DNA of 64,000 bases from a virus (taxonomy: Duplodnaviria > Caudoviricetes): positions 1 through 64,000 of the IMG/VR virus record IMGVR_UViG_2791355405_000002. One strand, given 5' to 3'. Shown here piece after piece: positions 3,226-53,284 of the stretch (positions are counted from its first letter, which is position 1; every line of letters starts with the position of its first letter). The notes below the pieces were generated by a model. The model did not search any database and was not told where the DNA came from. It saw only the letters and a program-made list of their open reading frames with translations. The position numbers and the translations under genes were made by a program.

Positions 3226-6200
3226 TCACTCCTCTCCGTGGACTTTGCGGGACAGGGCGGTGAGGACGCGGCGGTAGGCCCACTGGTCCAGTTCGTCTTC
3301 GCTAAGGCCCTCGGAGAGCTGCGGAATACCCGCCGCGACGAGGGCGAGCTGCTGGCCGGACGTCAGATGCGTCTTCAACTTGGGTACCGGGAAACCCGGC
3401 ACGTTCACGGCGAGCAGGCCTACCAGGCGCAGGTTGCCGCCGATGCGGCGCCAGTCGCCGGAGACCTGGCCGGCCGCGCGCAGCTCGTGGATGCGCGACT
3501 CGGGCGTGCCGTGACGGATCGACCCGGCGACCCAGATGCCGTGCGCGTCGTTGCCCACGGCGACGTCCGCCACGGCGGCGCCGGTGTTGTCGTAGTGGTC
3601 GGCCGCCGCGCGGTAGCCGTAGGACAGCGGTGCGTGCCCGGTACCAACGGTGATCTGGCCGACGCCGACGGACGCGCCGTCCTCCGTCCACACGTTGCCG
3701 GTCATGAAGTAGGGGTGGGCCTCCTCGTGCGGCGGGGTGACGCAGACGCCCTCCTGCCCGATGTGGCACGTGCCCCACAGCGCGGCGTGCCCGTACACCC
3801 GGCCCTCCGGGGTGACGGTGATCCCGGTGGGGACCGACAGGCCCGGGTTGGAGAACCATCCGGCCGGCGGGCGCAGCGGGGCGTCCACCGTCAAGGTGCG
3901 AGCCCTCGGGACCCGCGTCTCACGTACCGCGCCGATGGGCTCGCCGCCCGCGACGACCGCGCCCTCCTCGTCGAGCAGTGCGATGTACGCCTCCGCGAAC
4001 GCGGGGATGTCTACGAGCGTCGCCGCGCGGATGCGGCCCTTGTTGAACACCACCTTCTCCGGGCTCGCGAACAGCATGTCGAACGGGTCAGGGCCCTCGC
4101 CGTCGGCGTCCGGGTCGGCGGGCCACACCAACTCCATGTCGGCGTCCTTGATGGAGTCGACATCCACGGACACGCCGCGCAGGAACTGGCCTTTGATCTT
4201 GCCGTGAACGGTGCGACCGTCCTCGGTGGACAGGTCCAGCACCCCCTCACCCATGACCAGGCCGCCGTCCTCGCGCCACACCTTGTCGATGCGGCCGACG
4301 TTGACTGCCACGGTGTGCGGCTCACCGCCGTGGCTGTCCTCCTTGTTCCAGCGCAGCGGCAGCGGCAGGTCAGCCCAGGTGAGCGCCTCGGGCTTGAACT
4401 CGCGGCCGTCCCCGGTCTCGATGCCCTCCACGGTGAGCGGGCCACGCCACGGCGCGGTCTCCCCAGCACCCATCTCACTGACCGGCGGACCCGCCACCTT
4501 CTCGGCGTCGGCCGCCGCGCCGTGCGCCAGGGTTTCCGGGCCGTGTTCGCCGCGCAGCGCCTGAGTGCTCCCGGCCGCCTGCTCAGGGATCGGCACGCAC
4601 TCGCCGCTGTCCTCGTCCAGCTCCATGCCGGGCGGGCACTGCTTCTCCTCGGCCGCAGCCTGGTTCTCCTTGAGCCGCTTGTCCTTCGGCGTGCCGGGGT
4701 TCGGCTCGCCCTTGCTCAGGGCCTCGTTCGTCTCGGTCGCGCTCGTCACGGTCTGGTCTCCCTCCGCCGCGTACAGCGCGGCCAGTTGATCGTCGGCGTC
4801 GCTCTCGTTCGCGTGGCAGCCGGACACCTCTCCGTCGGAGTCCTTCACCACCGCCCAGGGCTTGTCGTTCGGGCATTCCGAGTGTCCGTGGACCTTGTGC
4901 CAGGGCATGGCGTCGTCCTCCTTTGCCGGGTCTGCGCTTGCCGTGGTTGCGGACCTGCGGACCTCTTGCCAGACGGCGACGATGAAGCCCCGGCAGGCGT
5001 TGCCGTACCGGGCGCCGGTGCAGTCCCGGTAACCCATCACCGGGTACTCCGCCACGGCAGCGTCCAGCGTGGTGAATGTGCGGCCGTCGACGCCCTTGCA
5101 CGGCTCGCACGTGCGGCCGTCCAGGATCTCCGAGGCGACGTAGCTGGACGCGGGCGGTGCGGCGTCCATCACCGCGTTGCGCCCGGCGTTCTGCGCGGCC
5201 GTCATCGCCTGGCCCACGGCGGCTCGCACACTGGTGCCATCCACCGTGGCCAGTTCGCGGTCGACCTCGGCGGCTATCTGTGCGGGAGGCCGGTTCGAGC
5301 GCAGCAGCCCGGACAGCTTGCGCTTGGCAGCCGTCAGCAGCGCGCCGGACATCAGGTCGCTGGTGAGTTCCGCGACGGAGGCCAGCAGGCGCCGGCCGGC
5401 GAGCGCCGCTGTCACAGCGTCGTCCTCGTCGTCGGGCAGCGACCAGTCCGGCACCCGCACGCCCTGCGCTTCGGCTTCGCGCTGGCAGGCTCGGCCCGCC
5501 TTGACCGCGAACTCCTCCATGAGGCTGAGCAGCGTCCCGGCGGCGGCCTGCCGGTCCAGGGAGAGCTCCAGCAGCGAGTCCAGGTCGTCGTCAGCGAGGT
5601 CCCGGGTGATCTGCTGACGCAGGTCCAGGCGCCATGCGGCCGTCGTGGACGCGAGCGTCTGCACCGCCCGGTTTGTCGCGGTCTCCCACTCGCGGTGCAC
5701 CGAGGCGAAGTCGGCGCGCGAGGCCACCTCCAGCTCGGTCGGCTCCCGGCGCAGCGGCCCGGCGGCGGCTGTCACTGCCTCGCCGGTCAACGGGATGTCG
5801 TGGTCCTCGTCGCCGAAGCTGACCCGGATCCGGTCGAACGTCACGGGCCCCAGGCGCTGCTCCAACTCGGGGAGGAACGACGGATCACCGCTGTACGCCG
5901 CGCAGATATGGGCGACCCAGGGTGTGTGCGGATCAGGGACGTCCAGGGCCGTGGCCCACACGGCTTCCTCGGCCATCTCGTGGGCGGCCTCCAGGGACAC
6001 GCCGTCGGGCATGTCGCCCACGGACCACACCCAGGACGGTTCATCACCGTCGCCGTTCCAGTGCGCCGCCCCGAACACCTTGGACGTGATCGACGGCAGA
6101 TCCTGGCTGAGCATCCGCATCTCTTCCACCAGGGCCGCACGCGCGTCGGAGTCGTGCGCGTCGGTCTTGCCCAGATAGCGCAGCGTGCAGTGCAGCTCGT

Positions 6201-6342
6201 CAGCCGGCTCGCCGCCGGGTATCGCGAGGCGTTCAGCGTCCTCGGCCGTCGGCATGAGGGCGATCATGCAGCCCTGCGTGTGCGAGCCGTCGGCGGCGGC
6301 CGTCAGGACCGGCGGGTGCTGGTGGTCAGTGCGCGGGGGCAT
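3226..6342 (-). CDS. 2H phosphoesterase (2'-5' RNA ligase-like) + MuF-like + capsid maturation protease fusion
   Basis: HCTL and HIC 2H motifs at the N-terminus; LDGRTCEPC...CTG...NACRG MuF-like segment; TGDGREF...VSVD...ATLVDIPAF and VSGDWR protease motifs. Confidence 0.82.
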   Translation of the reverse strand: MPPRTDHQHPPVLTAAADGSHTQGCMIALMPTAEDAERLAIPGGEPADELHCTLRYLGKTDAHDSDARAALVEEMRMLSQDLPSITSKVFGAAHWNGDGDEPSWVWSVGDMPDGVSLEAAHEMAEEAVWATALDVPDPHTPWVAHICAAYSGDPSFLPELEQRLGPVTFDRIRVSFGDEDHDIPLTGEAVTAAAGPLRREPTELEVASRADFASVHREWETATNRAVQTLASTTAAWRLDLRQQITRDLADDDLDSLLELSLDRQAAAGTLLSLMEEFAVKAGRACQREAEAQGVRVPDWSLPDDEDDAVTAALAGRRLLASVAELTSDLMSGALLTAAKRKLSGLLRSNRPPAQIAAEVDRELATVDGTSVRAAVGQAMTAAQNAGRNAVMDAAPPASSYVASEILDGRTCEPCKGVDGRTFTTLDAAVAEYPVMGYRDCTGARYGNACRGFIVAVWQEVRRSATTASADPAKEDDAMPWHKVHGHSECPNDKPWAVVKDSDGEVSGCHANESDADDQLAALYAAEGDQTVTSATETNEALSKGEPNPGTPKDKRLKENQAAAEEKQCPPGMELDEDSGECVPIPEQAAGSTQALRGEHGPETLAHGAAADAEKVAGPPVSEMGAGETAPWRGPLTVEGIETGDGREFKPEALTWADLPLPLRWNKEDSHGGEPHTVAVNVGRIDKVWREDGGLVMGEGVLDLSTEDGRTVHGKIKGQFLRGVSVDVDSIKDADMELVWPADPDADGEGPDPFDMLFASPEKVVFNKGRIRAATLVDIPAFAEAYIALLDEEGAVVAGGEPIGAVRETRVPRARTLTVDAPLRPPAGWFSNPGLSVPTGITVTPEGRVYGHAALWGTCHIGQEGVCVTPPHEEAHPYFMTGNVWTEDGASVGVGQITVGTGHAPLSYGYRAAADHYDNTGAAVADVAVGNDAHGIWVAGSIRHGTPESRIHELRAAGQVSGDWRRIGGNLRLVGLLAVNVPGFPVPKLKTHLTSGQQLALVAAGIPQLSEGLSEDELDQWAYRRVLTALSRKVHGEE

Positions 6343-10821: not shown

Positions 10822-11499
10822 TCAGGTAAGGACGAGAGGGTGGCCGGGCGCGTACGCGCTCTCGCCGACACCGATCACCGTATTGCCTGTCACGTAGACG
10901 CTCCGCATCACCAGCACGTCGCGGTCGGCGTCCAGGCCGAACGCCTCCCGCTCCTCCAGTGTCGTGGTGCGGACGTCCACGGTCTTGGAGGCCACCTTGA
11001 CCGGGTTGCCGGAACGGTCCTGGTAGAGGGCCTGCCATGTGGGATCGCAGGCCTGGGGCTCGTCGATCTCCGGCACGACGTCGGCAACAGCGATGCGCAC
11101 CCACGACTGCGATGCCTGGACGACCTCGTCCCCGCGATTCACGGTGCGAACGCGGTTCACGCACTCGTCCTCCCCGAGATGATCCGCGACCCAATCCGGG
11201 GCCTGTACGCGCTCGCTGCGCAGGTGGTGGATCGTCTCGCCAGCCTGCGTGATGCCCGCGATGCGCTTCTCGCCCGCGATGAGCCGGCGCCGGTCGGCGA
11301 CGAAGACGCCCCGCCCCTGCTGGGACGTCACGTAGCCCTCGGCTTTCAGCAACGCGATGCCGCGATAGACGGCGTTGTCGCTGATCATGAACTGCTTCTC
11401 CAGAGCCGAGGTGGGCGGCAGCCGGTCGCCCGGCTTCAGAGTTCCCAGGTCAATACGTGCTTTCAGGTAGTCGACCATGCGCTTCACAGTGCCAGCCAT
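10822..11499 (-). CDS. GntR (HutC-type, UTRA domain) regulator, KorA/TraR-like
   Basis: LKPGDRLPPT...LLKAEGYVTSQQGRGVFV wHTH followed by a UTRA-like C-terminus. Confidence 0.88.
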   Translation of the reverse strand: MAGTVKRMVDYLKARIDLGTLKPGDRLPPTSALEKQFMISDNAVYRGIALLKAEGYVTSQQGRGVFVADRRRLIAGEKRIAGITQAGETIHHLRSERVQAPDWVADHLGEDECVNRVRTVNRGDEVVQASQSWVRIAVADVVPEIDEPQACDPTWQALYQDRSGNPVKVASKTVDVRTTTLEEREAFGLDADRDVLVMRSVYVTGNTVIGVGESAYAPGHPLVLT

Positions 11500-45061: not shown

Positions 45062-45331
45062 ATGACCGTGACCGCGCCGCAGCGCCCCCCGCGTGGACGC
45101 CCGAGGCCCGCAGAGACCATCGAACGGGACCGCAAGATCCTGGACCTGCTCAAGGCCAACCCGGACGGGATGGCCCGCAACGTCATCGCCCAGGAGATGG
45201 GTCTGAACAAGTCCGTCACCTACCTGTCCCTGGACCGCCTGCGCCGGCAGGGTCTGGCCGAGAAGATCAGCCCCGAAGGATCCCAGGCCGACAAGGACAC
45301 CCTGTGGGTCGCCACCCCCGGGGAGTCATGA
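45062..45331 (+). CDS. Winged HTH DNA-binding protein
   Basis: RGRPR AT-hook-like segment, then ILDLL...IAQEMGLNKSVTYLSLDRL. Confidence 0.75.
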   Translation: MTVTAPQRPPRGRPRPAETIERDRKILDLLKANPDGMARNVIAQEMGLNKSVTYLSLDRLRRQGLAEKISPEGSQADKDTLWVATPGES

Positions 45332-46283: not shown

Positions 46284-46544
46284 GTGCCGACCACCACAGC
46301 CACGACTGGACCACCCCCCACCCTCGCCGATGCGGTCCGGGGACGCATCGGCGAACTCAGCGACCGCAACAAAAAGACGTTCACTGTCGCGGACTTCCCG
46401 GGCGTTGCTGGCCGCGCCGGCCGGCCGGACTCCTGGCTGGAGGACCACCTGCTGGTCCTGGAAGGCATCGGGATCCTGAAGCGCGTCCGTCGCCCCGGGG
46501 CCCGCACGTGGACCGTCAGCCCGGGCTCGGAGTATCTGAGGTGA
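46284..46544 (+). CDS. Stand-alone TraB C-terminal-like wHTH protein
   Basis: FTVADF...GRPDSWLEDHLLVLEGIGIL resembles the TraB C-terminus. Confidence 0.6.
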   Translation: MPTTTATTGPPPTLADAVRGRIGELSDRNKKTFTVADFPGVAGRAGRPDSWLEDHLLVLEGIGILKRVRRPGARTWTVSPGSEYLR

Positions 46545-46846
46545 CGCGGCGAGTGGAGCAGTTCGGATACGTCTACGGCGGAACAGCCCTCATCAAAGGG
46601 AAGCCGCACGAGCTGGAGGGAACGGCCTGGTCCCTGGGCCGGTGCGACGAGGTGCGGCTGCGCGCGGCAGCCGTACGCGAACTGACTCAGTCGCAGAACG
46701 TCCCGCTTGAGGGAATCGAGATCACCGACTTCTGGTTCAGCGAGATCTTCACTGAGAGCGAAGTCAGGCAGAGTACGGAGAGCGCCGACCCTTTCCGTCC
46801 TCACGCCGGCCCTGACCCCTTCCGCCCGTGCGGCGGGGACATCTGA
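46541..46846 (+). CDS. Hypothetical protein
   Basis: GTGA overlap. Confidence 0.5.
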   Translation: MTRRVEQFGYVYGGTALIKGKPHELEGTAWSLGRCDEVRLRAAAVRELTQSQNVPLEGIEITDFWFSEIFTESEVRQSTESADPFRPHAGPDPFRPCGGDI

Positions 46847-46973
46847 CGGAGGGACAGCGGACAGCGAGCCCCTGCGGGAGATCGCAGGGGCTTTGTCGTG
46901 CCCCGGGGTTGCGCCTCACGGGCCCGGGTAGGATGATTTAAGGAAATCATCGCGACCAAGGAACGAGGAGACC

Positions 46974-47438
46974 ATGACCGAGCTCAAGACTTCCACCGGC
47001 CCCGAGGACCACGCCCTGAGCGCCCTCAACGCGATCACCCGCGACGACCCCGAGGCGGCCCGGGAGCACATCCGCGCCCTGTCCTTCCGGGACCGCGCCC
47101 TGATCACCGCGTGGGCCGGGGAGTTGTCCAGGCTTGTCCAGGACGAACAGGACAACTACGAGATCTCCGAGCGACGGGCCGCTCGCGATCGACACGCGGC
47201 TGAAGATCGCGCGGCTACGAGCCGCAAAGTTCTGCGCACACGCATCAGCCTCATGTTCGAGGAGTCCGGCGCTGACGCTCCCGCCGTGCGCGTGACCGAC
47301 TTCGCCGACCTCCGGCAGAGCCGGCCCTGGATCGTCGGCGAACTGAAGCAGCTCACCGACGAGGGCGTGCTGGAGCCGGTCCCCGACTACCCGGGGCGGT
47401 ACGTCGTCCTCAAGGCGCCTGACGGGGACAGCGTCTGA
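46974..47438 (+). CDS. Protein with C-terminal TraB-like wHTH
   Basis: VTDFADLRQSRPWIVGELKQLTDEGVL. Confidence 0.7.
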   Translation: MTELKTSTGPEDHALSALNAITRDDPEAAREHIRALSFRDRALITAWAGELSRLVQDEQDNYEISERRAARDRHAAEDRAATSRKVLRTRISLMFEESGADAPAVRVTDFADLRQSRPWIVGELKQLTDEGVLEPVPDYPGRYVVLKAPDGDSV

Positions 47439-47640
47439 CGGGACAGTGGGACAGGGACAAGAGACGCCGAGGGGCTCCGGGACACCGGGGCCCCTTCGTC
47501 GTGTCCCGGGACAACCGGCCGTCGGGACAGAGCGAGCGTGTCCCCGGAGGGACACGGGACAAGGGGACAGATCGGCCCGTGTCCCGCCGGGGACATGTCC
47601 CGGGACAAATGTTTGCCGGGGCACGGGACAAGGGGACAGA
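47425..47640. repeat. Dense GGGACA/TGTCCC hexamer array (intergenic)
   Basis: About 18 copies by manual count in ~215 bp, both orientations. Confidence 0.85.
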
Positions 47641-47710
47641 TCAGGTGTACGATGATTTAAGAAAATCAGCACCGACCAAGGAATCGTGACCAAGGAAGAG
47701 AGGACAGACG

Positions 47711-48949
47711 ATGTCCCGCATGTCCCGTCAGACGGCCGCCACCGTCGGGCTCCTTGTCCCGGCCGCACTGGCCCTGACCATGTCCGCCGACACCTCGTAC
47801 CGCTTCATGGAGACGGCGCTTCAGATCACCGACGAGAACGAGCGGATGGCCCTGTGCGGCGTCGCCGAGGCGGCCATCATCGCCCTCACGGTCTACTCCT
47901 GGGCTACCCGGACCAAGGGCCCTGCGTACCTCGCCTACGCCGCCGTCCTCGTGCAGGCCCTCCCTGCCTTCACGGTCTCCGGCAGCGTCGGCGGCCCGGT
48001 GCGTGTCGTCCTCGGCCCCGTGCTCCTGGCCGTCCTCCTGCACCTGCTCCTGGGCCTTGAGCTGCGGATGTCCGGCGAGAAGTCGACCGGCATCCTGGCC
48101 TCCGCCCTGCGTGAGATGCGGGAACGTCTCGTCGCATTCCTCGGCATCGGCCGGCGCGGCGCCGACAGCGCGGCTATCGCCCGCAGCCGGGCCGCTGACC
48201 GTGCCGTAGACCTCGCGGACCGCCTGGAGGGCGCTGAGCCTGGCAAGCGCAGGCACACCCGCCTGACGGCCAAGCTGGCCGCCCAGATCGATGCGGCCCG
48301 CCACGGGCTGGACGCGGACGAGGCCGCAGCCGCCGAAGCAGCGATCGTCGCGCGGGTGGTCCGGCGCAAGTCGGTCAAGTCCCTCGCCAACATCAAGTCG
48401 CGGCACGACTGGACGTTGTCCCTTGTCCCGGCTGAGGGCGGAGCCCGGGACAAGGGACACAGCGATGTCCCCGGGGACATGTCCCCAGCGCCGGTTGTCC
48501 CGGTGTCCCCTGTCCCCCAGGACGGTGTCCCAGCCGCCGTGTCCCCCGCGCCGGTTGTCCCCGCGCGTGTCCCGGCGGTCGTGTCCCGTCCTCGCTCGGC
48601 TGTCCCCGCCGTGTCCCCCTCGCGTCCCTCGGTCCACGTGTCCCTGGACAAGGTCTCCGAGTCTGTCCCGGCCGACCGGGACATGTCCCGGGACAGCGCG
48701 CGCTACGAGGTGAAGTCGTTCGGGGACATCACGGCCGAAGCGCGCGGCGAGTCCCCGGACACGGGACAGGCCGTGGTCGATGTCCCCGAGGACCGGCTGG
48801 GCAGCGTGGCCTCCGTCGTCCGGTTCCTGACCGAGACGGGACACAGCCGGGACGAGATCCGGAGGATTGTCCCGACCCTGCCTCTGGAGAAGCCTGCGGG
48901 TGAGGAGGCCTTGAAGAAGGCGATCCAGCGGTGCGGGCCCAAGGCGTAG
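47711..48949 (+). CDS. SpdB-like membrane spread protein
   Basis: SADTSYRF, four TM segments, LLHLLLGLELR, Pro/Val/Ser repeat region; upstream of traA/traB. Confidence 0.65.
   Translation: MSRMSRQTAATVGLLVPAALALTMSADTSYRFMETALQITDENERMALCGVAEAAIIALTVYSWATRTKGPAYLAYAAVLVQALPAFTVSGSVGGPVRVVLGPVLLAVLLHLLLGLELRMSGEKSTGILASALREMRERLVAFLGIGRRGADSAAIARSRAADRAVDLADRLEGAEPGKRRHTRLTAKLAAQIDAARHGLDADEAAAAEAAIVARVVRRKSVKSLANIKSRHDWTLSLVPAEGGARDKGHSDVPGDMSPAPVVPVSPVPQDGVPAAVSPAPVVPARVPAVVSRPRSAVPAVSPSRPSVHVSLDKVSESVPADRDMSRDSARYEVKSFGDITAEARGESPDTGQAVVDVPEDRLGSVASVVRFLTETGHSRDEIRRIVPTLPLEKPAGEEALKKAIQRCGPKA
48417..48873. repeat. TGTCCC/GGGACA hexamer array within the spdB-like CDS
   Basis: About 27 copies by manual count, in different codon phases and both orientations. 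Confidence 0.85.
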
Positions 48950-49067
48950 AACGGCCTTGCGGTCGGCAGCCGACCGCGAGACGCTTGATTTAGGTAAAGC
49001 CCTACCGGGGACAACCTCGGTAGGGCTTTCGCCCATCAGGAACCAGGAATCAGGAAGAGAGGCGGCC

Positions 49068-49634
49068 ATGAGCCGTATCGGAGAGAACCACCCGGACAAC
49101 CCGTTCAGCGCGGCCGGCCGCGCCAACGGACAGACCAACGACCAGCTCCGCAACCGGGGACTGGACGGCCAGGGCAACCCCCTGCCGAACAAGAACTTCG
49201 CAGGTCAGAAGTCGTTCCGGTCGGGCGGTTCGAGGAACCAGGGCATCGCCCAGCTCGCCCAATCCATCGGCGACATGGACCTGGCCAACCAGGAAGACCT
49301 CCACGCCTTCTGTGACGCGATCAGGAAGATCCTGAACTATTTCGCGATCTCCGTGGAATTGGCAAAGGGCCAGCTCAAGGCAGCTTCCCGGCAGATGGCG
49401 AAGGAGTCTGTTGACGGGCGGCTGACGATGACGCAGCGCGCCGAACTGGCCAGGGCGCTGTCCATGATGAGCCGCGACCTGGACGCGGTCTCGCGCGCGT
49501 GCATCGCCGGAGCGGTCGGCGCGGTCAAGGCCTGGCGCAGGTTCGACTCGTTCCTGGGCGACCTGGACAAGGGCAACGACTCCAAGTTCACCCGCCCCGG
49601 GGGCCGTGGTCGCGGCCCCTTCACCGTGGTGTAG
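49068..49634 (+). CDS. TraA-like plasmid transfer accessory protein
   Basis: Helical protein directly upstream of traB, as in Streptomyces plasmids. Confidence 0.55.
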   Translation: MSRIGENHPDNPFSAAGRANGQTNDQLRNRGLDGQGNPLPNKNFAGQKSFRSGGSRNQGIAQLAQSIGDMDLANQEDLHAFCDAIRKILNYFAISVELAKGQLKAASRQMAKESVDGRLTMTQRAELARALSMMSRDLDAVSRACIAGAVGAVKAWRRFDSFLGDLDKGNDSKFTRPGGRGRGPFTVV

Positions 49635-49639
49635 GGGCG

Positions 49640-51637
49640 GTGGACAACGTGTCGAACAGTCACCGCGTGCGCGGATACGCCCTGTTCAGGGTGCCTGAGC
49701 GCATCGTCTCGTACGTCCTGCCGTGGGCCATCGTCGTGGCCGTGTGGCCGCTGACCCTGGTACTCCACCTCGCCATCGGCGACAGCCCGTTGTGGGTGGG
49801 CCTGCTCGCCGTCGGGTTCACCTACCTCGCGCATCAGACATGGAAGATCTGGACGGTGCGCCGCCAGGAGACCCGGAACATGGCGACGGTCTTCGTCGTT
49901 GCCGTCCTGACCTGGGCACTCTTCGCCGTGGCGATCCGTCCCTGGCAAGCCGACATCGTCAAGGCGTGGGCCATCGGCGGCCTCGTCATGTCGGTCGCCT
50001 GGTGCATCCGGCACGCGGCCCTGTCGGGCATCCGGGACACCGACAAGTCCCCGGAGACCAGCGGAAACGACGGCCTGCTGAGCAAGATCCGGGCGTTCAA
50101 GGACGCCAAGGTTGGCAAGGTGACGGAGACCGCCGACGAGCTGCGCGTCCCGGTCCACCTGGACGCGCCGACCACGGCGAAGGAGGCGCAGGACGCCCGT
50201 GAGCAGATCGCGGCCGTCGCCGGTGTGGGCGCTGACCAGGTGAAAGTCCTCAAGGTCAAAGGCGACGAGAGCAAGGTCAACGTGGCGTTCACCCGGGACA
50301 CCAGCGACGCCAAGCCGGTCATCTGGAAGGGCCCGAGGCACCTCGGCAAGTCCATCGCGGACGCGCCGATCTGGCTCGGCGGACGCACCGACGGCTCCGA
50401 CATCAACTGGTGGATCGTCGGCTCTGAGGACGACGAAAACCCCAGGCCACTGGCTCACACGAAGTGCACAGGCATGACCGGCGCGGGCAAGACGGAGACC
50501 ATCTGCACCGCCATCCTCCAGATGCGCGAGCGCACCGACGTCGTCCCGGTCGTGGGCGACCCTGCCAAGTTCCAGCAGTCGTTCGGCGACATCGAGGAGG
50601 TGCTGGGCCTGGCCGCGAAGACCCGGGAGGACACCGAGCAACTGGTGCGCAACCTCATCCCGCTCATCGAGTACCGAGCCGGCTTGTTCGGCACGCTGAC
50701 CAGGGCAGACGGCGGCAAGGGCTACAAGCAGTGGGTGCCTGAGATGTACACGCTGCACGGCATCCCGGCCATCTTCCTGGACATCGAGGAGGCCGCCGAC
50801 GTGCTGATGGTCGTGGACGAGGAGGCCGACGAGGCTCTGCGCAAGCTGCGCTCCATCGGCGTGCACTTCTGCGCGTCGATGCAGACCATGCCGCACGACA
50901 ACATCCCCCGGAAAACCCGAGGTCAGTTCGCCCAGAGCCTGGCCCACGGGCAGAAGGAGTTCCAGGACGCAAAGTACAGCCTGGAGGCCGAGACGCTGGA
51001 GGCAGGGGCCGACCCGACCAAGTGGGCCAACAACGCGCCCGGCAGCCTGTATGCCGAGGTCACGGGCACGGACAAGGCTCATTGGCCTGTCGACGGCCGG
51101 GCGCCGCGCGTGAAGGCGGCCGACCGTGAGGAGATGATCCGGGTCACCCGTCCGTACTGGGCGGAACTGGACGAGGGCAGCTACCGCATCCTCTCCCGGG
51201 GTATCGCGGACGAGCACGACGGGGCCGCGCCGGCGGCCGTGGACCAGCCCTTGGAGGGCACCGTGGACGACGACTTCGCCGAGGTCAGCGGCCTGGATCT
51301 GACCAGCGACGGAATCGACACGAGCGAGCCGCTGGCCGCGCCGAGCGGCCCGGAGGTCACGTTCGCCGCGCCGCTGAACACGAGCCGGATGACCGACGAG
51401 GACGCTCGCGCGGAGCTGCTGAACCGCATCGGGATCCTGGCCGCCGGACCGAGGACCGAGGTCACGTTCGAGGCTCTGGAGGACATCCCGGAGCTGGTCG
51501 GCAGGCCCCGTGGATGGGTGTACGGCGAGCTGGAGCAGCTCGCTGATGACGGCGTGCTGCGCCGGCTCAACCCGCCCACCGAGAAGGCCGTCTACGAGAT
51601 CACCGGCAGCCTGTACGCGGAGGCCGCCGCCGGGTGA
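49640..51637 (+). CDS. traB: TraB FtsK/SpoIIIE-like conjugative DNA translocase
   Basis: N-terminal TM segments, GMTGAGKT Walker A, IEEAA, LRSIGV..SMQ, WANNAPG, C-terminal GRPRGWVYGEL wHTH. Confidence 0.88.
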   Translation: MDNVSNSHRVRGYALFRVPERIVSYVLPWAIVVAVWPLTLVLHLAIGDSPLWVGLLAVGFTYLAHQTWKIWTVRRQETRNMATVFVVAVLTWALFAVAIRPWQADIVKAWAIGGLVMSVAWCIRHAALSGIRDTDKSPETSGNDGLLSKIRAFKDAKVGKVTETADELRVPVHLDAPTTAKEAQDAREQIAAVAGVGADQVKVLKVKGDESKVNVAFTRDTSDAKPVIWKGPRHLGKSIADAPIWLGGRTDGSDINWWIVGSEDDENPRPLAHTKCTGMTGAGKTETICTAILQMRERTDVVPVVGDPAKFQQSFGDIEEVLGLAAKTREDTEQLVRNLIPLIEYRAGLFGTLTRADGGKGYKQWVPEMYTLHGIPAIFLDIEEAADVLMVVDEEADEALRKLRSIGVHFCASMQTMPHDNIPRKTRGQFAQSLAHGQKEFQDAKYSLEAETLEAGADPTKWANNAPGSLYAEVTGTDKAHWPVDGRAPRVKAADREEMIRVTRPYWAELDEGSYRILSRGIADEHDGAAPAAVDQPLEGTVDDDFAEVSGLDLTSDGIDTSEPLAAPSGPEVTFAAPLNTSRMTDEDARAELLNRIGILAAGPRTEVTFEALEDIPELVGRPRGWVYGELEQLADDGVLRRLNPPTEKAVYEITGSLYAEAAAG

Positions 51638-51654
51638 GACCCACGGTTCGCACC

Positions 51655-51800
51655 CCCTCAGGGCGGGCATCCCCAGTGTCAGGGGTGCCCGCCCTGACAC
51701 GTCTCTGACGGGCCGTGGTGGCACCGCTGACGCGTCAGCAGACGCCGCCTGACTGTCCGTGACTCCAGCGATTACACGGGTCTGACAGGGGCCCTGACAG
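51655..51800. repeat. Hairpin plus CTGAC repeats after traB (clt candidate)
   Basis: CTGAC at 51694, 51705, 51727, 51749, 51782, 51794; GTCAG at 51678, 51734. Confidence 0.5.
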
Positions 51801-51885
51801 CCTCGGCAGCGCTGCGACCTAAGACTCTTCCCCGCCCGGCCCGGCCGGAGCGGACAACCACCGATGACGCAAGGACTGATGACAC

Positions 51886-52278
51886 ATGACCAAGGAACTC
51901 AACTGCACCGGATGCGGCCTCCAGGCGGTCCACACCCAGACGGTCCCGCTGTGCCCCCGGTGCGCCCTGGCCGTCGCCGAGGAAGCGTTGGGCGTCGTGT
52001 TCGCCGGGCTGCGCAGCGACGACGGGGTGATCAAGTTGCCCGCTGCGCCGGAGGACCGTATGAGCCCTGCGGAGGCGGACGACGTGACATACCAGCGGCT
52101 GTCCGCGCTGCGCCGGAAGGGCGTGAAGCGGGTGACCTACGAGGACTTCAAGGACTTGCGGGAGATCACAGGCCGGTCCCGGCCGTGGGTCTACCGCTGG
52201 CTGGACAGCCGGGTGAAGGACGGCGATCTGATCAAGGACACGTCGCAGGACCGGGTGGGCTACACCTTCGCGTACTGA
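51886..52278 (+). CDS. Zn-finger + TraB-like wHTH protein
   Basis: CTGC...CPRC; VTYEDF...GRSRPWVYRWLD. Confidence 0.7.
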   Translation: MTKELNCTGCGLQAVHTQTVPLCPRCALAVAEEALGVVFAGLRSDDGVIKLPAAPEDRMSPAEADDVTYQRLSALRRKGVKRVTYEDFKDLREITGRSRPWVYRWLDSRVKDGDLIKDTSQDRVGYTFAY

Positions 52279-52287
52279 TCGCCGGGG

Positions 52288-52327
52288 TTGTGCGGACCGC
52301 CGGACCTGTGGTTTAATTAATTCATCG
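52288..52327 (+). promoter_or_regulatory. Early promoter/operator TTGTGC-18-TTTAAT
   Basis: GTGGTTTAATTAATTCAT palindrome. Confidence 0.7.
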
Positions 52328-52347
52328 GGACCGACCGGGAGGCATAC

Positions 52348-52584
52348 ATGAACCGCGATGACATCGTCTACTCCGTACCCAGCTACGAGAACGAGGCGGA
52401 CCGCTACGCAATGGACGAGTCCCCGCTGCGTCTGGGCGAACTCGGCGCCGGCCTCGGCCTGGGCGAGCCGGTTGCGACGCCCAAGGCTCGCGACCTGACC
52501 AACCCTCGGTTCCCGAACGGCTGCCTCACCGCACAGACCGAAGGCACCCGGTGCGGCTACGGTCACGACTGCCGCCCCGCCTGA
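52348..52584 (+). CDS. Hypothetical protein
   Basis: GGAGG RBS after promoter. Confidence 0.65.
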   Translation: MNRDDIVYSVPSYENEADRYAMDESPLRLGELGAGLGLGEPVATPKARDLTNPRFPNGCLTAQTEGTRCGYGHDCRPA

Positions 52585-53221: not shown

Positions 53222-53257
53222 TTGTGCTCCGTCCCGAGTGATGGTTTAATTAAATCA
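53222..53257 (+). promoter_or_regulatory. Early promoter/operator TTGTGC-17-TTTAAT
   Basis: TGGTTTAATTAAATCA palindrome. Confidence 0.72.
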
Positions 53258-53284
53258 GTCGGGGAGAACGAGCCCGGCGGACAA

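Follow-up and report, generated by a model that had tools for sequence, protein, structure and literature searches.

Stand-alone relatives of the TraB reader domain in the transfer module of a Streptomyces phage-plasmid

Within a 64,000-nt stretch of the viral record IMGVR_UViG_2791355405_000002 (the window, meaning the whole stretch that was analysed) we found three small open reading frames (ORFs), ORF-A, ORF-B and ORF-E, whose products A, B and E carry a winged helix that, as judged from sequence comparison, is specifically related to the C-terminus of the conjugative translocase TraB, beyond a generic winged-helix likeness. This kinship has strong support for E, good support for A and moderate support for B. 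The C-terminal winged helix of pSVH1 TraB reads the 8-bp TraB recognition sequence (TRS) repeats of clt via its third helix, and A, B and E are encoded in the same transfer module as the TraB of the window. An earlier note on this DNA had not known of such an arrangement, and full-text searches likewise turned up no published account of TraB reader domains that stand alone. New here are the two upstream lineages (A and B), their modular inheritance and an estimate of how rare such copies are.

46284..46544, + strand: ORF-A, 86 aa, consisting of little more than a free TraB-type winged helix (domain ~46308-46526)
46974..47438, + strand: ORF-B, 154 aa, an N-terminal helical domain, a stalk helix and a TraB-type winged helix (domain ~47202-47420)
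51886..52278, + strand: ORF-E, 130 aa, an N-terminal Cys4 part resembling a zinc ribbon, followed by a TraB-type winged helix (domain 52060-52275)
49499..51637, + strand: traB, FtsK-like conjugative translocase (NF041214, E 6.9e-91, 306 bits)

Relationship of the three proteins to the TraB reader domain

The earlier note had quoted four peptides, from the TraB tail and the three proteins, which are indeed present in the ORFs where it had placed them, and the kinship holds in NCBIfam, hidden Markov model (HMM), hhalign and BLASTP comparisons alike. The last ~75 positions of the NCBIfam TraB model NF041214 are matched by E (4.4e-8), B (1.1e-4) and A (0.011), and BLASTP against the TraB tail of the window gave 5e-7 for E (35%, 65 aa), 1e-4 for B and 4e-4 for A. 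The comparison drew on nine related elements, 84-102 kb in size, that had been retrieved from genome and viral collections, and on the linear plasmid pS1D4-14.2 (loci carry L numbers). An HMM built from the TraB C-termini of the nine elements and run against 1783 six-frame ORFs from the window and the loci matched TraB and the E, B and A families only, with values of 1e-9 to 3.5e-12 for the E family (3.5e-11 for E of the window), 1.2e-5 to 4.6e-4 for the B family (4.6e-4) and 1.4e-5 to 7e-3 for the A family (1.7e-5); a neighbouring MarR-type helix-turn-helix (HTH) gene at 45062 scored 0.02-2.6. In hhalign comparisons with the TraB tail, E reached 98% (73 columns), A 94.8% (57 columns) and B 87% (61 columns), all alignments spanning helix 1 through the wing, and an alignment of the TraB tail with the three families needs no gaps in the region of an invariant Trp and a G-R-x-R-x-W turn. 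None of the Pfam winged-helix families matched A, B or E at E<0.03, and A, B, E and the neighbouring products A2 and C showed no family in Pfam, PHROGs or NCBIfam besides the TraB tail.

One could argue that E is the sole true paralogue and that A and B resemble TraB only as any winged helix does. Both are just 21-22% identical to TraB tails, and a joint profile of the domain cross-matches an ArsR-family regulator with an E value of about 1e-5 per genome. However, the Pfam winged-helix families miss A and B even at E<0.1 while the NCBIfam TraB model matches them, the TraB-tail HMM places both well above the local MarR-type HTH, hhalign covers the whole domain, and the G-R-x-R-x-W turn and the ungapped register are common to A, B and E. 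We therefore regard a relationship restricted to E as very unlikely.

The structure prediction that the earlier note had proposed as a check yielded confident winged helices for E and B with AlphaFold2. In both models the order is helix 1 (H1), a strand, helix 2 (H2), helix 3 (H3) and a β-hairpin wing, and A should have the same fold because it aligns without gaps with the other families. In E, residues 61-128 form helix, strand, two helices and wing with a predicted local distance difference test (pLDDT) score of ~90, and this part resembles Fur with a Z of 8.5 (VIA). The model of B has a mean pLDDT of 88.8 and begins with two short helices, followed by a helix of 60 residues, which continues into the winged helix at residues 99-145 (helices 38-98, 107-113 and 117-129, strands 104-106, 133-135 and 142-145). 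A fold search found B to resemble dimeric DNA binders of the CRP/CodY type, which combine a long helix with a winged helix, and the long helix is probably a dimerising element. Foldseek matches of the models were generic winged helices (E>=2.6e-3), and FtsK gamma was not among the top fold matches listed by Foldseek and VIA, although the fold may still be shared. A PDB sequence search with E gave nothing meaningful, and the profile of the TraB tail matched the Fur winged helix by sequence, albeit marginally. As a lead only, A is nearest to the DsrD winged helix by ESM features.

The three proteins differ in what surrounds the domain. ORF-A is barely more than the domain itself, with no additional N-terminal part; its 3' end overlaps the start of ORF-A2, its G+C content at third codon positions (GC3) is 0.84, its ratio of nonsynonymous to synonymous substitutions (dN/dS) is about 0.4, and it is kept in eight of the nine related elements. 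E is laid out as a Cys4 part, a helix, a linker and the winged helix, and the cysteines Cys7, Cys10, Cys23 and Cys26 are invariant or nearly so. E has 58 homologues, which are all annotated as hypothetical and many of which lie on contigs of ~90-100 kb. B, whose recognition helix is identical to that of TraB in 11 of 17 residues, has only 4 homologues among 5.8e9 proteins. Its N-terminal domain is found alone, without winged helix, in three relatives (L003:3963-4262, L007:3596-3838, L010:4150-4467), and the gene is absent from L008 and L009; B is thus an optional member of the element family. A, A2, C, TraA, TraB and E are syntenic in 8/9 distinct elements; in L010, the most divergent relative, A and E were not detectable. 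The small genes, with GC3 of 0.84-0.93 and dN/dS of 0.4-0.66, are on par with the TraB tail, and A, B and E are real conserved genes under purifying selection.

That the copies flank traB, as the earlier note had put it, is true in a loose sense. ORF-E begins 249 bp past the traB stop, while ORF-A and ORF-B are found at distances of 3.1 and 2.2 kb on its upstream side, with A2, the membrane-protein gene ORF-C and traA in between. From ORF-B onwards the gene order along the + strand is ORF-B, ORF-C, traA, traB and ORF-E, with the following additional features in this region:

46508..46846, + strand: ORF-A2, 112 aa, conserved partner gene, syntenic in all close relatives, with no family match
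47425..47640, no strand: GGGACA/TGTCCC repeat array 1, between ORF-B and ORF-C
47711..48949, + strand: ORF-C, 412-aa membrane protein, at the Spd/DUF2637 gene position of pWTY27, with no significant family match (Pfam, PHROGs, NCBIfam)
~48430-48780, no strand: GGGACA array 2, overprinted on the Pro/Val-rich part of ORF-C
49065..49634, + strand: TraA-like gene (NF041213 plasmid_TraA, E 1e-3, below cut-off), syntenic in all relatives
51677..51799, no strand: CTGAC(A/G) repeat array, probable clt, after a terminator-like hairpin at 51661-51694

Old lineages, repeat arrays and gene order

To judge from their sequences, A, B and E are old, separately evolving lineages and not recent duplicates. None of the three is closer to the TraB tail of its own element than to that of another (identity to own vs other: E, 31.3 vs 31.3%; A, 21.7 vs 21.0%; B, 21.2 vs 22.1%), and therefore no concerted evolution with TraB is apparent and recent duplication or gene conversion was rejected. 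Each of the three also forms a stable orthologous family in synteny, set apart by its own N-terminal part. These results bear on the pool of swappable specificity modules considered in the earlier note, according to which the copies would be a reservoir of recognition modules that recombine with traB and so alter its clt specificity. In favour of such exchange, a 37-nt stretch of ORF-B (47336-47372) is 84% identical to traB (51523-51559). Yet this is expected from 9/12 shared residues and a GC3 near 0.9, and the whole recognition helices of B and traB are 63-67% identical at the DNA level in three elements and 46% identical in L006. As all three proteins are as similar to the TraB of other elements as to their own, and as each paralogue keeps a distinct N-terminal part and a stable orthologous family, the idea of a reservoir is disfavoured and in our view hardly probable at all.

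The GGGACA/TGTCCC motif occurs in array 1 with 18 copies per 250 bp, compared to a mean of 0.4 for the window. In two of the relatives, L006 (3000-5550) and L007 (3100-5450), the GGGACA arrays are replaced by arrays of CGAAAGC/CGAGAGC. These two loci group as sisters in the HTH gene, the family 2 glycosyltransferase (GT2) gene, A, A2, B and C, a pairing that TraA, TraB and E do not show, and since it holds only to the left of traA, we place a recombination break between ORF-C and traA. As the type of array follows this left block, the GGGACA arrays can be assigned to it together with A and B. The earlier note had connected these arrays with the three proteins, but they do not track TraB or E. 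The GGGACA arrays are also disfavoured as clt of TraB, since the TraB reader of L007 is almost the same as that of the window despite the CGAAAGC/CGAGAGC arrays. Between the two array types the recognition helix of B is wholly different.

For clt itself, the CTGAC(A/G) array between traB and ORF-E is the better candidate. Eight copies of the motif lie in the 248 bp from the traB stop to the start of E (window mean 0.68 per 250 bp), forming the sole cluster of this kind in the window, and among seven elements the motif columns are conserved to 0.96, compared to 0.82 in the remaining spacer. A short-repeat array right after the tra gene is also known from pWTY27, where the clt just past tra consists of TGACACC and CCCGCCC repeats that are footprinted by the Tra protein (PMC3583192). 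The CTGAC array resembles these footprinted repeats and is probably the clt of the element. The same arrangement was found at an unrelated TraB locus, L019 (G040:C104, 8780-9461), in which traB is followed by ten TGACACC copies in 253 bp and then by a gene for a free winged helix of 142 aa without zinc ribbon. As the TraB of L019 is only 27% identical to that of the window, the order of traB, clt repeats and free reader gene has arisen or been kept in two distant lineages.

From the CTGAC array to the ribosome-binding site of ORF-E there follows a strongly conserved block (51800-51885, TTCTCTCCCGC..CGGCCCGGCCGG.GCGGACAAC), which is also present in L002-L009 and is probably the promoter or operator of E; a scan for consensus promoters and terminators was uninformative in the GC-rich DNA of the window. 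The masking of clt or adaptor role that the earlier note had suggested for the free domains is possible for E, whose gene lies directly behind the clt-like array, an order that recurs in an unrelated element.

Proposed roles of the free reader domains

As a working model we tentatively propose, with a probability of roughly 0.45, that A, B and E are sequence-specific DNA binders that serve the transfer module in an accessory or regulatory role. All three would bind double-stranded DNA at the repeat arrays of the transfer region. E, as part of the block of traA, traB and clt, would most likely bind the CTGAC array that separates its gene from traB. At this site it would control its own expression and would modulate, compete with or prime the loading of TraB at clt. 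A and B, located in the upstream block that is inherited with the GGGACA arrays, would more likely target these arrays or spread-gene promoters, with B as a dispensable extra.

Several points weigh against this model. The assignment of each protein to an array is drawn from position and from a co-variation with two states, and this co-variation of array and protein is confounded by shared ancestry. The recognition helix of A hardly changes when the array type switches, and the GGGACA arrays are kept where B or its winged helix is missing (L003, L008, L009). Free copies are also not needed for the function of TraB as such, because L010, pSN22 and pWTY27 have none. Finally, winged helices can act as protein-protein modules. 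In pSVH1, for example, the C-terminal domain of TraB has Spd198 and SpdB2 as binding partners (PMC4447253).

This last point leads to a reading in which the free domains dock on the TraB C-terminus or on Spd-like membrane proteins and work as decoys or adaptors that read no DNA. It is suggested by the pSVH1 interaction map and by the N-terminal domain of B, which must have a role of its own because it is found alone in three relatives. Against it, each of the three families conserves the HTH, its basic residues (the G-R-x-R-x-W motif) and the wing, as would fit a contact to DNA, and we consider protein contacts of this kind rather improbable.

The main alternative is that the three proteins are ordinary kil-kor-type repressors at the promoters of traB and the spread genes, with no part in clt function or transfer and with nothing but shared ancestry behind their likeness to the TraB domain. 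Repressor function is typical of small winged helices that stand alone, ArsR, MarR, Fur, CRP and CodY are among the results of the fold searches, and the conserved block behind the CTGAC array is probably a promoter. Such a function is plausible also because no GntR-type TraR/KorA gene, which as repressor gene is usual beside traB (pSN22, pWTY27), adjoins traB in the window, an absence that also speaks for the working model; the sole GntR gene found on the contig (C551) is ~35 kb away at window positions 10822-11499 on the - strand. However, the closest sequence relatives of the three proteins are TraB tails and no regulator family, a clt-like array immediately precedes the gene of E and its counterpart in an unrelated element, and three repressors of one domain type would be unusual for a 6-kb module. 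Overall we find repressors without any transfer role unlikely, if still worth considering. The candidacy of A, B and E themselves as GntR-type TraR/KorA was rejected, as none matches PF00392. In the same genome two other TraB loci were seen, one of classical type with a GntR gene ~3 kb upstream (C382) and one with a GntR gene on the same contig at a distance of ~22 kb (C596).

Starting again from sequence-specific DNA binders that serve the transfer module, one can go a step further and imagine the free readers as a control layer in which E would occupy the clt repeats needed by TraB, while A and B would occupy second arrays by the spread genes. We regard this as a speculative and quite unlikely extension. 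If it were true, the element would decide by these proteins when its double-stranded DNA genome goes to a neighbouring hypha as opposed to being replicated or packaged into virions, and TraB would be the first known DNA translocase with a target-site reader that also exists in the form of separate proteins, which compete with it or prime it.

In antibiotic-producing Streptomyces, plasmids and chromosomal DNA are exchanged mainly by conjugation of the TraB type. Small proteins that carry the reader of TraB itself and are encoded beside traB and its probable clt offer a handle on the recruitment of TraB to clt or its exclusion from this site, and in a phage-plasmid they bear on the choice between two ways of spreading.

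Known systems, distribution and the wider element

With the clt reader of TraB, as found in pSVH1, in Tra of pWTY27 and in NF041214, A, B and E share the same domain in the same register of H1, strand, H2, H3 and wing. They differ from TraB in that they have no membrane anchor and no FtsK-like ATPase (Pfam and NCBIfam detected no ATPase part in any of the three), in the other N-terminal parts that E (zinc ribbon) and B (helical stalk) carry while A has none, and in the recognition helices of A and E. The established model for the TraB domain is FtsK gamma (PF09397), a C-terminal winged helix of the related chromosomal translocase that reads the 8-bp FtsK-orienting polar sequences (KOPS), but neither TraB nor A, B or E of the window matches PF09397 in Pfam at E<0.1.

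Among small DNA binders of transfer regions, SpdA and SpdA2 have a zinc-finger-like N-terminus, and spdA of pSG2 adjoins traB (PMC4170104). They are recognised by a conserved N-terminal DNA-binding region of 38 aa and by the sps palindrome CGTCACGTGACG within or beside the gene, and the DNA-binding part of SpdA is N-terminal, unlike E with its C-terminal winged helix. No sps palindrome was found near the locus at <=1 mismatch, and at <=2 mismatches the window holds fewer matches than expected by chance. An identity of E with SpdA was rejected, as this palindrome is missing and as BLAST found no match to the ORFs of pSN22 except TraB. The accessory proteins of type IV relaxosomes, such as TraM and TrwA, are likewise small DNA binders, which mark the transfer origin and contact the coupling ATPase, but they have unrelated folds and belong to a single-strand transfer mechanism, so that they serve as an analogy only.

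In order to estimate how widespread free copies are, we searched 1.84 billion representative proteins with the joint domain profile (E<=1e-3) and classified the best 150 of the 167 proteins found. Among these 150 are 50 full-length TraBs, 18 TraB fragments, 19 orthologues of A, B or E and 51 other stand-alone proteins, and 12 were left unclassified, having no BLAST match to proteins of the window. FtsK gamma is matched by only one of the 51 distant stand-alone relatives and generic HTH families by three. Eleven are proteins of 243-290 aa that share with E the N-terminal Cys pattern and the C-terminal winged helix and carry between them a GIY-YIG-like T5orf172 (PF10544) or MUG113 (PF13455) domain, which E lacks, and most of the rest have no Pfam family at E<=1e-3. 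They include P0059, P0088, P0089, P0104, P0109, P0111, P0127, P0163 and P0182, some with an amino-acid composition of low-GC type; P0111 matches both ends of E, and P0089 and P0109 are also members of T5orf172 type that match the ends of E. The domain represents a family not covered by Pfam that occurs fused to TraB, alone and in proteins of T5orf172 type.

The arrangement is rare. The joint profile gave matches in 25 of 200 Streptomycetaceae genomes, nearly all of these matches being TraB tails and one a further free copy, and at 20 other TraB loci (±9 kb, searched with the profile and with the tail of each TraB itself) a paralogue was present at one, namely L019. Two scans of viral contigs for the other stand-alone relatives gave no matches, and neither pSN22 nor pWTY27 has a free copy of the domain. 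A class-level genome scan gave weak matches only, one being an ArsR regulator next to leuS, and weak profile matches do not all belong to this family because ArsR regulators cross-match at ~1e-5 per genome. Downstream of the spd genes of pSN22 (L037, 6148-6444) there is a hypothetical protein of 98 aa with a short HTH at its end that resembles the TraB reader (SEADAR...TGW..GWV), but with only 12 bits and without a wing.

The window has 69% G+C and a codon usage of Streptomyces type and lies on a contig of 92.7 kb. It encodes virion proteins (major head protein, portal, head protease and tail proteins), replication proteins (primase-polymerase and helicases) and the TraA/TraB transfer module (NCBIfam), and is part of a ~93-kb Streptomyces phage-plasmid. 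As head, portal and tail genes occur together with the TraA/TraB module and as the related elements have sizes of 84-102 kb, these form a family of phage-plasmids with conjugation genes of Streptomyces type. An experimental precedent for a phage-plasmid of this kind is pZL12, as it is cited in PMC4487206 and PMC3583192. Megablast and tblastn searches of phage and plasmid collections with the region, B and E found pS1D4-14.2 as the single syntenic plasmid and no matching phage record; the genes under the match are all annotated as hypothetical bar the GT2 glycosyltransferase and the HTH protein.

TraB of the window is itself divergent, since its 306 bits on NF041214 are below the equivalog cut-off of 800 bits, and it is 24-29% identical to the TraBs of plasmids (pSN22, pWTY27 and others). 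Its gene probably starts near 49640, and its C-terminal winged helix corresponds to 51389-51607.

Two further observations concern the window at large. At 3226-6342 on the - strand it encodes a protein of 1037 aa with an RNA-ligase-like N-terminal part and with matches to portal- and protease-like virion proteins. An AT-rich palindromic element (TGATTTAAGGAAATCA and variants) is found at 46928-46949, 47647-47668, 52316-52335 and 53236-53257, where it stands before ORF-B, ORF-C, a small ORF at 52348 and the region at 53260, respectively, and it is probably a shared promoter or leader tag of the element.

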